From assembly GCA_003644825.1 (NCBI GenBank), contig QNDJ01000001.1:1-26275 (forward strand): DNA of 26,275 nt, given 5' to 3'. Position 1 is the first letter of the stretch; every line of letters begins with the position of its first letter. Origin of the DNA: Candidatus Zhuqueibacterota bacterium. GTDB taxonomy: Bacteria > SM23-31 > B21-G16. Positions 17,033-21,727 of the stretch are shown here, in pieces. The notes beneath the pieces were generated by a model. It did no database searches and was not told the origin of the DNA. It was given only the letters and a program-made list of their open reading frames with translations. The position numbers and the translations under genes are program-made.

Positions 17033-17796
17033 TATTTGATAGGTTAAAAATTTTATTCTCAAAAACAGGGAAAAGTCGGGAAGTTGATGAAGGAATTGAA
17101 TGGGAAGAGTTTCAGAAATCCCTCAATTATGTAATAAAGAAGTATAACCTTTTTAAGGAAGCTTTAACCCATCGTTCATATTTTTCCCGAAAAGATTCTG
17201 AAAAAATAAAATCCAATGAAAGGCTCGAATTTTTAGGTGATGCTGTTATTAATCTTGTAGTTGCGGAGCTTCTTTACGAAAAATATCCTGATATTAATGA
17301 AGGAGAGTTGACAAAGAAAAGGGCAATTCTTGTAAGCAGAAAGATTTTATCTGAAAAATCAAATGATTTGAACCTTGGTAAGTTTGTACTTATTGGTGAT
17401 TGCGAGGAAAAAACTGGTGGAAGACAGAAAGTTTCGATTCTAACAGATACTCTTGAGGCAGTAATAGGAGCAATTTACATTGAAAAAGGATATAAAAAAG
17501 TAAGAGATTATTTGAAAAATACAGTTTATAAAGATTTTGAAGAGATATTTGACAAGGAGGAAGTAAGAAATTTTAAAGGTGAACTTCTGGAATATATTCA
17601 GAAAGTTCAGCATAAAACACCTAAATATTTTCTTAAAAAGGAAGAAGGTCCTGACCATTATAAAACTTATACAGTTAATGTAAAAATTGGTAATAAGATT
17701 TTTGGAACAGGAAAAGGAAGGAGTAAAAAGGTAGCTGAACAAAAAGCAGCCGAAAAGGCTCTTGAGAAGATTAAAAATCTAAATGAGGGGAAATGA
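17026..17796 (+). CDS. rnc: Ribonuclease III
   Basis: ALTHRS, signature [21 protein letters not shown]-terminal dsRBD (GPDH..G.GRSKK.AEQ.AA). Confidence 0.96.
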
Positions 17797-18032
17797 TTAT
17801 GGATGTAGTGGAGACCATTGTGGATATACCCACAGTAATAATCAGAGTGGATGAATGTAAGGGATGTGGTTATTGTGTAGAGGCTTGCCCTGTTAAAGTA
17901 CTGGTTCAATCTAAAAAGTTGAACATAAAGGGATATCATCCGGCAGAATATAAAGGAAGTGGTTGTACAGGTTGTGGAGTATGTTTTTATACCTGTCCCG
18001 AGCCAGGAGCTATAACAGTAATAAAAAAGTAA
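17793..18032 (+). CDS. vorC: 2x[4Fe-4S] ferredoxin-type subunit of 2-oxoacid:ferredoxin oxidoreductase (VorC/delta type)
   Basis: [12 protein letters not shown] and [12 protein letters not shown]; immediately upstream of the alpha subunit. The true start may be ATG 17799, which has better spacing from GAGGGG. Confidence 0.85.
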
Positions 18033-18050
18033 TGTACAGGAGAATACAAA

Positions 18051-19121
18051 ATGGCAAAAGTTTTGTTAAAAGGAAACGAAGCAGTGGTAAAAGGTGCAAT
18101 CCTTGCTGGATGTAGATTTTTCTTTGGTTATCCTATAACACCTGCAAGTGAGATAGCGGAAACGGCTGCATATTATATTCCGCTGGTTGGGGGTACTTTT
18201 ATTCAGGCGGAGAGTGAGATAGGAGCAATAAATATGGTTTATGGTGCATCTTCAGGTGGTGTAAGAGCAATGACAGCCTCTTCGGGGCCTGGTTTAAGCT
18301 TGAAACAGGAAGGGATATCTTATTTATGTGGAGCTGAGCTACCGTGTGTGATTGTTGATATAATGAGAGGAGGACCGGGTTTAGGCAATATTGCTCCTGA
18401 CCAGGGAGACTACAATCAGATGGTTAAAGGTGGTGGCCATGGTAGTTATAAAGTGCTTGTTCTCGCTCCAAATTCTGTTCAGGAGATGTGTAACTTTGCA
18501 ATTCTTGCTTTTGAACTTGCAGATAAATATAGAAACCCTGTTATTGTGTTGACGGATGGGTTTATTGGACAGATGATGGAACCGGTGGAGTTTCCTGAAG
18601 TTCAGGTAGAGGTTCCAAAAAAAGACTGGGCTCTTTATGGGGAAGAAGACGATAATAAAAAACTGATATCATCAATTTATCTTGACCCTGATGAGCTTGA
18701 AGAAATTGTTATAAAGATAAACAAAAAATATAAAAGAATGGAAGAGGAAGAAGTTCGGTATGAAGCCAGTTATTTAGAGGATGCTGAGCTTGTAACTGTT
18801 AGTTTTGGCGTTGTATCGAGAATATTATCTTCGGTTGTAGAAAGATGCAGAAAGGAAGGTTATAAGGTAGGTTATTTAAGACCTATTACCTTATTTCCAT
18901 TTCCGAAGAAGATAATTAATAAACTTTCAGAAGAGGGCAAGGCGTTTTTATCGGTTGAATTAAGCAATGGTCAGATGGTTGATGATGTTAGGCTTAATGC
19001 AAGGCAAAGTGATGTTCATTTTTATGGAAGGATGGGTGGAAATGTTCCCAGTGAAGACGAGTTATATGAAGTTATTGTTAAAATACTCAAAGGAGAAAGG
19101 AAATGGCTAAAAACAGGTTAG
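18051..19121 (+). CDS. vorB: 2-oxoacid:ferredoxin oxidoreductase alpha subunit, VorB (3-methyl-2-oxobutanoate dehydrogenase) type
   Basis: [55 protein letters not shown]. The family is certain; substrate specificity is inferred. Confidence 0.85.
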
Positions 19122-20542
19122 GAAAATCGAGTGCATTTTATGATATATATGAGAGAAATCCGTCTTCAGATAAAACTGTGACCCATTACTGCCCCGGTTG
19201 TGGTCATGGAATATTACATAAATTTATAGCTGAAGCTCTTGAAGATTATGGTGTATGGAATAGAACAATCCTTTTAAGCCCTGTTGGATGCAGTGTTTTT
19301 GCATATTATTATTTCAAGGTTGGAAATATTCAGTGTGCTCATGGTAGGGCACCTGCTGTAGCAACTGGAATAAAGAGAGCTCATCCTGATAGTATTGTTA
19401 TAAGTTATCAGGGTGATGGAGACCTGGCAGGTATAGGTGGCAATGAGATAATACAGGCAGCAAATAGAGGAGAAAATATTACTGTATTTTTTATTAATAA
19501 TGCAATATATGGTATGACAGGGGGGCAGATGGCTCCCACCACCCTTGTTGGTCAATCTACAACAACCACACCAAGAGGGCGTGATATTTATAATGAAGGA
19601 TACCCTATTAAGATAGCCGAGATAATATCAATCTTAGAATCACCTGTATATGTTGAAAGAGTTGCTTTAGCAGATACAAAAAATATTATGAAAGCAAGAA
19701 GTGCTGTCAGGAAAGCAATAAATTATCAGGTTGAAAATAAAGGATTTTCTCTTGTTGAGGTTCTTTCTCCCTGTCCTACTGGCTGGAAAATGAACCCTGT
19801 AGATGCAAAAAAATGGGTCACAAATGAGATGCAGAAATATTTTAAACTTGGTGTTTTTAAAGATGTCGGTAAAGAAAGAAAATCAAGAAAAGTTAATGGA
19901 GAAAAAGTTCCGCTAAATAAGGTTCCAGATATAATAGATATTCCATCTGATGAAAAGAAGGAAATCAGTCGGATAGAGAAAAAGAGTGAAGAGAAATTTT
20001 TAAAGAGGATAAAGATTGCTGGTTTTGGAGGACAGGGTATTCTTTTACTTGGTGTTACTCTTGCTGAAAGCGGAATGATGGAAGGGAAAAATGTTACCTG
20101 GTTGCCATCCTATGGACCGGAAATGAGAGGAGGAACGGCTAACTGTCATGTGATTGTTTCGAATCAGAGAATAGGGAGCCCACTTGTGGATTGGTCGGAT
20201 ATTTTAATAGCAATGAATAGACCTTCTCTCGATAAGTTTGAACCCAAAGCTGTACCCGGGAGCCTTATATTTTACGATTCCACAATTGTTAATAGAAAAC
20301 CTGAAAGAAATGATGTTAAAGCAATAGGTGTTCCATTTACGGAAATTGCTGATGGTATTGGAAGTACCAAAGTTTTAAATATGGTTGCACTTGGTTCCCT
20401 GATAAGATTTACTGGTATGTTATCTCCAGAAACTCTGTTTGAAGCTCAAACAAGGGTTGTAAAAAGGAAAGAATTTCTGGAATTAAATAAGAGAGCAATA
20501 AAGGCCGGAATGGAATTTATAGATTCTTTAAAAGAAAGTTAA
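19103..20542 (+). CDS. vorA: 2-oxoacid:ferredoxin oxidoreductase fused beta+gamma subunit (VorA type)
   Basis: Beta part: [17 protein letters not shown] motif [29 protein letters not shown]. Gamma part: [27 protein letters not shown]. Confidence 0.85.
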
Positions 20543-20572
20543 TAATCTGAATAAAAATAAGGAGATTAGAAA

Positions 20573-21727
20573 TTGGATTACTTACTTACAGATGAACAAA
20601 TAGAACTCAGAAACTTAGCACGGAAAGTAGCTCGAGAGAAGATTAAGCCAATAGCTGCTGAATGCGATAGAGAGGGTCGATTTCCCTGGGAAATTGTAGA
20701 ACTCTTCAGAGAGCTTGATTTTTTCAGAATAATTGTTCCAGAGGAGTATGGTGGAATAAGTGGTAAGAGCCTTGATGTTTGTATAGTAACCGAAGAGTTA
20801 AGCAGGGCTTGTGGAGGAATAGCGTTATGTCTGGCGGCAACTGCTCTTGGTTCTTATCCAATTATTCTTGATGGAACAGAAGAACAAAAGAGAAAATATC
20901 TTCCCAGAATAGCAAACGGGGAAATCCTGACCGGATTTGGATTAACAGAATCATCTGCGGGTTCTGATGCTGCTGCCATAAAAACTACTGCAAGGCGTGA
21001 AGGTAACTATTATATTCTGAACGGAACAAAACAGTTTATTACTAACGGCAGTGTAGCAAAGGTGTATACTGTGATAGCTAAAACTGACCCTACGAAAGGG
21101 ACAAGAGGAACATCAGCTTTTATAGTGGAAGAAGGATATGAAGGGTTTTCTTATGGAAAGAAAGAGGATAAAATGGGAATCAGAGCATCGGTTACATCGG
21201 AGCTGGTTTTTGATAATTGTAAAGTTCCTGTGGAAAACAGGATAGGTGCAGAAGGTCAGGGGTTTATAGTTGCAATGAGGACCCTTGATAAAGCGAGACC
21301 GGGGGTTGCTGCTCAGGCAGTTGGTATTGCCCAGGGCGCTTTTGACCTCGCTCTGGAATATATAAGAACTCGAGAACAATTTGGCCAGACTTTATCTACT
21401 TTTCAGGGATTGCAGTTTATGATTGCAGAAATGGCAACAAAAATTGAAGCAGCAAGGGCTTTAATCTATGCTACTGCAAGAATGGTCGATGCGGGAGTAA
21501 GAAATATTTCAAAAGAATGTGCAATGTGTAAACTTTTAGCTTCTGATGTAGCTATGGAAGTTACTACAAAAGCTGTTCAATTGTTTGGTGGATACGGTTA
21601 TATGAGGGATTATCCCATTGAAAAATTTATGAGAGATGCTAAAATTACACAGATATACGAAGGAACAAATGAAATTCAGAAAGTAGTCATTGCAAGAAGA
21701 CTTATAAAAGAAGGTGCAAGTAAGTAA
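20573..21727 (+). CDS. Acyl-CoA dehydrogenase (short/branched-chain, butyryl-CoA dehydrogenase-like)
   Basis: VPEEYGG, LTESSAGSD, LNGTKQFITNG, KMGIRAS, R.QFG, FGGYGY, catalytic Glu in IYEGTNEIQ; TTG start with AAGGAG RBS. Confidence 0.93.
   Translation: MDYLLTDEQIELRNLARKVAREKIKPIAAECDREGRFPWEIVELFRELDFFRIIVPEEYGGISGKSLDVCIVTEELSRACGGIALCLAATALGSYPIILDGTEEQKRKYLPRIANGEILTGFGLTESSAGSDAAAIKTTARREGNYYILNGTKQFITNGSVAKVYTVIAKTDPTKGTRGTSAFIVEEGYEGFSYGKKEDKMGIRASVTSELVFDNCKVPVENRIGAEGQGFIVAMRTLDKARPGVAAQAVGIAQGAFDLALEYIRTREQFGQTLSTFQGLQFMIAEMATKIEAARALIYATARMVDAGVRNISKECAMCKLLASDVAMEVTTKAVQLFGGYGYMRDYPIEKFMRDAKITQIYEGTNEIQKVVIARRLIKEGASK

Follow-up and report, generated by a model that had tools for sequence, protein, structure and literature searches.

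The window analysed here, a 26,275-nucleotide stretch of a Candidatus Zhuqueibacterota genome (contig QNDJ01000001.1 of assembly GCA_003644825.1, positions 1 to 26,275), carries genes for a putative 2-oxoacid:ferredoxin oxidoreductase (OFOR) of the ketoisovalerate type (VOR), followed by a gene for an acyl-CoA dehydrogenase (ACAD), behind a fatty acid synthesis (fab) operon that ends in rnc. The VOR of methanogens reportedly has a fused subunit (described by Tersteegen et al. in 1997). By family, the closest described system is VorCBA of Methanothermobacter (EC 1.2.7.7), to which the genes of the window were likened via a family model and their layout. Both have a small 2x[4Fe-4S] subunit, an alpha subunit of about 350 amino acids (aa), a fused beta-gamma subunit of about 480 aa, a match above the cut-off of the NF005507 model and the motifs for thiamine pyrophosphate (TPP) and Fe-S clusters. 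The methanogen enzyme was proposed to be anabolic (PMC13285125), whereas that of the window is bacterial and lies in a context that suggests catabolism.

By catabolic role, the closest systems are the assayed gene sets CLOSPO_00146-00149 of C. sporogenes and CLOBAR_01193-01196 of I. bartlettii, which, like HpdDEFG, encode VOR-clade enzymes of oxidative amino-acid catabolism (PMC13290082, PMC13285125). These sets consist of four genes and often lie beside ptb-buk or ADP-forming ligases, whereas in the window beta and gamma are fused and the genes lie beside those for the ACAD and fatty acid synthesis. By proposed role, the nearest system is Pfor4 of Clostridium thermocellum (Clo1313_1353-1356). 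It shows the same ferredoxin-alpha-beta-gamma order and is an OFOR that stands in for the missing branched-chain 2-oxoacid dehydrogenase complex (Bkd) and provides branched acyl-CoA primers; its deletion was reported in 2026 to abolish branched fatty acids (PMC13011478). However, its beta and gamma subunits are separate, its locus lies outside the fab operon and its role was derived from a deletion, whereas the VOR of the window is known from its genes alone.

Three further systems were compared. OorDABC/KorAB (PDB 8YS5, 6N2N) belong to the same superfamily with a delta-alpha-beta-gamma order, and tricarboxylic acid (TCA) cycle genes occur near the VOR of the window, but the window's proteins score far under the OorA and OorB cut-offs and a paralogue elsewhere in the genome (contig C449) matches better. 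Bkd occupies the same metabolic position, forming acyl-CoA and CO2 from a 2-oxoacid and CoA; however, it is built from unrelated E1/E2/E3 proteins, reduces NAD and tolerates oxygen, and none was found in the window's genome. The ACAD resembles Bcd of the C. difficile Bcd-EtfAB complex (PDB 5OL2) and short-chain ACADs in its near end-to-end alignment, in the Glu of its YEGT motif and in the presence of EtfAB in the genome, but it is not adjacent to etfAB and ends the fab-rnc operon.

A VorCBA-type oxidoreductase behind rnc

The four genes in question are as follows.

17793..18032, plus strand: VorC/delta-like ferredoxin subunit with 2x[4Fe-4S], 79 aa (Pfam Fer4_7/Fer4_9, 4Fe-4S dicluster)
18051..19121, plus strand: OFOR alpha subunit of the VorB type, 356 aa (POR_N and PFOR_II; NF005507)
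19103..20542, plus strand: fused beta-gamma subunit of the VorA type, 479 aa (TPP_enzyme_C at residues 74-220, POR gamma domain at 309-471)
20573..21727, plus strand: Bcd/short-chain-type acyl-CoA dehydrogenase, 384 aa, TTG start (three ACAD domains in Pfam)

Open reading frames (ORFs) and Pfam domains agreed with the positions at which a first-pass annotation of the same DNA had placed the ferredoxin, alpha, fused beta-gamma and ACAD genes. The beta-gamma fusion is real, as Pfam gives both domains in one ORF. The rnc stop codon (17794-17796) overlaps the first candidate ATG of the ferredoxin gene at 17793; an alternative ATG at 17800 has better Shine-Dalgarno spacing and would give a protein of 77 aa. 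Whichever ATG is used, the gene starts at the rnc stop or 3 nt beyond it. The alpha and beta-gamma genes overlap by 19 nt, and gaps of 30 nt and 70 nt lie between beta-gamma and ACAD and between ACAD and the nifU-like gene behind it. Co-transcription of the VOR genes with rnc is almost certain. In the intervals separating fab, rnc, vor, ACAD and sdh, scans for promoters and terminators gave about as many sites as chance would (55, with 52.4 expected, and 11, with 8.0 expected), and the relevance of such scans for the host group is doubtful.

The alpha subunit scored 535.6 bits with NCBIfam NF005507 ('3-methyl-2-oxobutanoate dehydrogenase subunit VorB'; cut-off 399), and this membership in the VorB family bore out the VorCBA-type three-gene architecture that the first-pass annotation had recognised. 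The same protein was below the cut-off of OorA (250.7 of 579) and of PRK08659, a generic Kor-type alpha model (332.4 of 411). The OorB model failed with 115.8 bits (cut-off 364), and none of the NCBIfam delta models reached its cut-off for the ferredoxin subunit. Two CxxCxxCxxxCP motifs were present in the ferredoxin subunit, and the beta part contained the CPGC...GC...SPCP cysteines and the GDG...NN TPP motif. Furthermore, the YPITP substrate motif of alpha was invariant in an alignment. More than 8000 database proteins matched alpha at E < 1e-20, and the best named matches were VorB proteins (so named by the Prokaryotic Genome Annotation Pipeline, PGAP) from metagenome-assembled genomes (MAGs) of Calditrichota, KSB1, Marinimicrobia and Eisenbacteria. 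Judged by family membership, the ferredoxin, alpha and beta-gamma genes are assigned to an ordinary VorCBA-type OFOR. A branched-chain 2-oxoacid is its probable, not certain, substrate, because NF005507 is a 'subfamily' model rather than an equivalog and because some VOR-clade enzymes prefer arylpyruvates. Among the assayed bacterial enzymes of the clade, most prefer branched-chain 2-oxoacids and some arylpyruvates (PMC13290082, PMC13285125).

The window's genome (G000; G, C and L numbers denote genomes, contigs and loci) is a MAG with a completeness of 83.6% and a size of 2.48 Mb, split into 493 contigs. It contains five OFOR alpha genes: one of the PorGDAB type (C54), three of the Kor/Oor type (C344, C242 and C449) and that of the window, which is the sole VorB-type alpha. 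The other four scored 121-299 bits with NF005507, all under the cut-off of 399. The C449 set was the nearest of the paralogues to OorAB, and the solved 2-oxoglutarate enzymes matched C449 better than the window's alpha (317 vs 203 bits for 8YS5; 247 vs 144 bits for 6N2N). By these comparisons, the Por-type and Oor-like paralogues are predicted to fit pyruvate and 2-oxoglutarate better than the VOR does.

Insertion of the VOR genes in one lineage

The linkage of VOR to fab was surveyed in 80 loci from other phyla (alpha 58-68% identical), two sister metagenome contigs, one relative at 69% alpha identity and 11 class-level genomes. In all 80 loci, where the contig permits, the ferredoxin-alpha-betagamma trio was kept at 48-69% identity with a full-length fused beta-gamma, and the recurrence indicates that the trio consists of real, conserved genes. 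The ferredoxin gene was directly upstream of alpha in 78 of these loci. None of the 80 had a fab operon or rnc upstream of the VOR core, and none had a close ACAD downstream. Besides the window, just the two nearest relatives, metagenome contigs whose alpha is 80% and 84% identical, had the whole arrangement from sucCD through VOR to sdhCDAB. The relative at 69% had neighbours unrelated to this arrangement, and the fused beta-gamma orthologue was absent from all 11 class-level genomes. A survey of other genomes for fab-VOR linkage had been suggested in the first-pass annotation; with three of three members of the lineage, 0/80 loci elsewhere and 0/11 class relatives, the linkage is not general and is confined to one narrow uncultured lineage. 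Among the 80 loci, only one fab gene adjoined the VorCBA core: in an Acidobacteria MAG (L082, from about 5549 onwards), a convergent fabH homologue (49% identity) comes immediately after it.

The genes flanking the VOR genes are as follows.

8613..10660, plus strand: sucCD, the ancestral upstream neighbour and a possible ATP-conserving partner via a CoA-transferase cycle (same position in G002, G005, G011 and L118)
11828..17796, plus strand: plsX-fabH-fabD-fabG-acpP-fabF-rnc operon, the context of the VOR insertion (NCBIfam equivalogs, all above cut-offs)
21798..22019, plus strand: NifU-like Fe-S scaffold domain protein, 73 aa (PF01106, 100 bits)
22176..25372, plus strand: sdhCDAB, the ancestral downstream neighbour of the fab-rnc block (directly after rnc in G001 and G004)

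Comparison of window 8613-25372 with L133-L141 showed that the backbone sucCD-ndk-yceD-plsX-fabHDG-acpP-fabF-rnc followed by sdh is common to the class relatives. The slot that separates rnc from sdh was empty in G001 and G004, contained an ACAD (64% identical) and nifU without VOR in G003, and contained ferredoxin-alpha-betagamma-ACAD-nifU in the window's lineage; elsewhere in the class, a distant ACAD-like gene was found in some. The nifU-like gene was also located 3' of the ACAD in G003 (61% identity), L118 and L119. These slot contents indicate that the fab and TCA neighbourhoods were inherited and that the VOR set is a later insertion, specific to the window's lineage, which separated rnc from an ACAD-nifU pair that was already in place.

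The 5' part of the window reads: a DinG-like helicase (minus strand), fumarase beta, a protein with an FGE-sulfatase domain, arcE-arcC, sucC, sucD, ndk and yceD. The 3' part continues with plsX, fabH, fabD, fabG, acpP, fabF, rnc, the ferredoxin, alpha, beta-gamma, ACAD and nifU-like genes, sdhC, sdhD, sdhA and sdhB. Two variations were observed in the fab operon of other genomes. In the class relative L139 (G006:C242, 22-1832), tandem fabH homologues, 58% and 64% identical to the FabH of the window, head the operon. In three KSB1/Zhuqueibacterota-like loci, a TPR/DUF6340 gene for about 340 aa lies between fabH and fabD (L142:1790-2875, L143:1511-2524, L144:1681-2700).

The acyl-CoA dehydrogenase as an older partner of fab-rnc

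In the PDB, the ACAD was matched best by C. difficile Bcd (5OL2), with E 1e-121 and an alignment over almost the full length. The protein was near Bcd and other short/medium-chain enzymes, and the isovaleryl-CoA, isobutyryl-CoA and short/branched-chain acyl-CoA dehydrogenases were more distant. The Glu in the C-terminal IYEGTNE motif occupies the YEGT position of the catalytic residue in this family. The substrate is not readable from the sequence, since no NCBIfam equivalog passes (the best was AcrC, 485.7 of 640).

In four of four sampled long metagenome contigs, from KSB1/Zhuqueibacterota and other lineages, an ACAD of 68-75% identity followed plsX-fabH-...-fabF-rnc, with a gap of about 17 nt from rnc in the three contigs for which DNA was available. 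Among 150 relatives, 31 genomes had both an ACAD match (at least 55% identity) and an rnc match, and in 15 of the 31, from 15 different families, the ACAD was the next gene after rnc, in the same orientation. The gaps across the linked loci ranged from 9 to about 530 nt. The linkage was observed without any VOR in L137, L142, L143 and L144 and in G013, G015, G022, G025, G027, G055, G074, G085, G090, G094, G117, G122, G146 and G148. The conserved and widespread linkage is fab-rnc-ACAD, and VOR is not part of it. The idea of the first-pass annotation that the ACAD diverts surplus VOR product into catabolism does not describe the original role of this gene, since the ACAD is an older partner of fab-rnc without VOR in G003 and in many families.

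Two ideas about the ACAD were rejected. VOR and ACAD showed no clear tendency to travel together; among the first 40 relatives, a fused VOR occurred in five, the ACAD in seven and both in two. A role as the missing enoyl-ACP reductase is not needed, as a candidate of the FabL type is encoded on C260 of the window's genome. In five complete genomes with rnc-ACAD, FabI/FabL-type short-chain dehydrogenases/reductases (SDRs) with a Y-x6-K motif were absent, and four of these five had full-length FabK-family genes. G094, which is 100% complete and has a full fab operon with rnc-ACAD, contained no such SDR and only a weak NMO/FabK match, and thus no convincing reductase of these types. In G125 (C188:4296-6243), an ACAD paralogue (55% identical) is followed after about 110 nt by a homologue of FabL-type enoyl-ACP reductase that is 54% identical to the C260 protein, a further case of an ACAD beside a fab gene.

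Metabolic setting and probable role

The neighbours of the VOR core in other phyla were clustered using four genes on each side of the 80 loci. A CoA-transferase of the acetyl-CoA-hydrolase family was beside the core in 11 loci, a class I/II aminotransferase in 9, and a class IV branched-chain aminotransferase (BCAT) in 8, immediately downstream in 7 of them. Ferredoxin/NAD(P)H oxidoreductase modules were found in 7 and 4 loci and a LeuA-like synthase in 4, and TCA genes (sucCD, sdh) were near the core in 0/80. These neighbours point to the metabolism of amino-acid, especially branched-chain, 2-oxoacids and not to the TCA cycle.

In the window's own genome, for which the first-pass annotation had advised a check for bkd, sucAB and korAB, three Kor/Oor-type sets were present, and no E2 of Bkd, pyruvate dehydrogenase or 2-oxoglutarate dehydrogenase (OGDH) was found, with E1 represented just by weak E1_dh matches in ORFs of 656 and 680 aa. 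E2 genes were present in 8 of the 11 class-level relatives. Searches of the genome yielded neither a haem-copper oxidase (COX1) nor a class IV aminotransferase (IlvE), a real IlvC or LeuA. Contig C172 (L127:49-4764) clusters a thiolase, a 3-hydroxyacyl-CoA dehydrogenase, a 131-aa ORF without a family, a second ACAD (43% identical to that of the window) and an amino-acid dehydrogenase. The last is a 356-aa protein of the Leu/Phe/Val/Trp type, for which the ScyB (Trp-dehydrogenase) model was the best (454 bits, under the cut-off), and this cluster probably provides the OFORs with 2-oxoacids. The single EtfAB set of the genome is on C59, and C87 carries a CoA-transferase with 64% identity to those linked to VOR in other phyla. 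Taken together, the gene content has the profile expected of an amino-acid-degrading, ferredoxin-based metabolism, and the lineage appears to have shifted to ferredoxin-linked 2-oxoacid metabolism. It may be auxotrophic for branched-chain amino acids (BCAAs).

On balance, the locus probably encodes a TPP- and Fe-S-dependent oxidoreductase of the VOR clade that turns amino-acid-derived 2-oxoacids into acyl-CoAs in a mainly catabolic role, with any supply of FabH primers incidental. The steps, taken from what is known of the family, would be as follows. Amino acids imported by a peptide- or amino-acid-degrading, probably anaerobic host would be deaminated by the C172 dehydrogenase and class I/II aminotransferases. 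The 2-oxoacids so formed, which are most likely branched-chain but may also be aromatic or methionine-derived, would undergo oxidative decarboxylation at the TPP site, which lies between alpha and beta. Electrons would pass from the [4Fe-4S] cluster of beta to both clusters in the small ferredoxin subunit, and the acyl group would leave as acyl-CoA. This product could be oxidised by the adjacent Bcd-like ACAD together with EtfAB, converted to acids via the CoA-transferase with ATP gained through SucCD, or used as a FabH primer. BCAA biosynthesis was rejected as the source of the keto acids, as no IlvE, IlvC or LeuA was found in the 84%-complete genome; the 2-oxoacids would hence come from imported amino acids, which argues for catabolism rather than dedicated primer synthesis.

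Several points weigh against this assignment. The substrate was deduced from a model at the 'subfamily' level and from gene context in other phyla; there, the aminotransferase neighbours come mainly from Acidobacteriota and Marinimicrobia and do not count as independent cases. In its own genome, the VOR locus is adjoined by neither an aminotransferase nor an amino-acid dehydrogenase, and all absences of genes from the MAG (bkd, ilv, cox) are provisional at about 84% completeness. The FGE-sulfatase (formylglycine-generating enzyme) family is usually O2-dependent, and the gene for a protein with this domain in the window (3361-4230) is an odd fit with strict anaerobiosis and an anaerobic gene content. 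Moreover, aromatic-specific enzymes exist within the VOR clade (PMC13290082, PMC13285125).

Alternative explanations

The first-pass annotation had proposed that VOR replaces Bkd as the primer source of the neighbouring FabH, that is, that it chiefly makes isobutyryl-, isovaleryl- and 2-methylbutyryl-CoA in a self-contained module for branched fatty acids. The idea of such a substitute is reasonable, and part of it stood: no Bkd E1 or E2 was found in a genome whose class relatives mostly keep an E2, and there is a precedent in Pfor4 of C. thermocellum, which has the same delta-alpha-beta-gamma order and is required for branched fatty acids (PMC13011478). The translationally tight attachment of VOR to fab-rnc, kept in three of three members of the lineage, and the fabH homologue in the Acidobacteria locus are also consistent with it. 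The fab linkage that had been offered as evidence did not hold up, however; as analysed above, it is a lineage-specific insertion without a counterpart in any of the 80 loci from other phyla, the relative at 69% identity or the class-level genomes, and the contents of the slot between rnc and sdh vary among related genomes. No BCAA biosynthesis genes that could furnish the keto acids (IlvC, IlvE, LeuA) were found, and comparison of FabH does not separate branched from straight primers, since the Aquifex, B. subtilis-type, E. coli and S. aureus enzymes all scored 277-332 bits. A dedicated primer supply is accordingly regarded as unlikely.

The ACAD linkage invites another explanation, in which the Bcd-like ACAD is the functional last gene of the plsX-fab-rnc operon with a previously undescribed role in lipid synthesis, and VOR was recruited in one lineage to complete a module leading from amino acids to branched primers. 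The ACAD, conserved across many families of the FCB group and related ones, might for example edit the pool of short-acyl-CoA primers or dehydrogenate acyl thioesters for unsaturated or branched lipids, with VOR co-expressed with fatty acid synthesis. We consider this quite unlikely.

An anabolic VOR, working in reverse, would carboxylate branched acyl-CoAs formed from exogenous volatile fatty acids, and a Leu-type dehydrogenase would then form Val, Leu and Ile. Such a direction was proposed for methanogens (PMC13285125) and for rumen bacteria, and it would agree with the missing IlvC, IlvE and LeuA, with the CoA-transferase and the Leu/Phe/Val-type dehydrogenase of the genome, and with the LeuA-like genes adjoining the VOR core in four loci. 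However, the adjacent ACAD, the arginine-catabolic arcE-arcC pair upstream of the VOR locus in the window and the beta-oxidation genes point to catabolism, an amino-acid degrader probably imports BCAAs, and the ilv genes may be merely unassembled in an incomplete genome. These considerations make the anabolic direction decidedly improbable.

A specialisation on arylpyruvates, with phenylpyruvate or hydroxyphenylpyruvate as the main substrate as in HpdDEFG and two 'VOR-like' enzymes of B. hydrogenotrophica, is in our view very unlikely. Such enzymes do fall inside the VOR sequence cluster (PMC13285125, PMC13290082), and the C172 dehydrogenase was best matched, below the cut-off, by a Trp-dehydrogenase model; however, the VOR neighbours in other phyla are BCAT and LeuA-like genes, an aliphatic Bcd-type ACAD adjoins the VOR of the window, and no aromatic-pathway genes are nearby.

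The least probable explanation, and one that the first-pass annotation had kept as an alternative, is a 2-oxoglutarate:ferredoxin oxidoreductase that serves an anaerobic or branched TCA cycle and supplies the flanking SucCD and Sdh: sucCD, fumarase and sdhCDAB do lie in the same window, no OGDH complex was found and the delta-alpha-beta-gamma gene order equals that of OorDABC, but alpha is far short of the OorA cut-off, the genome has three Kor/Oor paralogues of which C449 is much nearer to OorAB and the solved 2-oxoglutarate enzymes, the TCA context is ancestral, older than the insertion and present without VOR in class relatives, and TCA genes are near the VOR core in none of the 80 related loci.

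Implications

Much of the biochemistry is already known: PGAP names the family VorB, bacterial VORs have been assayed, and replacement of Bkd by an OFOR in the synthesis of branched fatty acids was demonstrated in 2026, so that the locus raises no new question in this respect. The more useful by-product of the analysis is the linkage of fab, rnc and ACAD, which is widespread. If the catabolic assignment of the VOR is true, this lineage handles keto acids derived from amino acids by a ferredoxin-linked enzyme instead of the NAD-linked Bkd apparently kept by most of its class relatives. It would then be one more anaerobic exchange of dehydrogenase complexes for OFORs, and would aid the reading of carbon and electron flow in uncultured bacteria of the FCB group.

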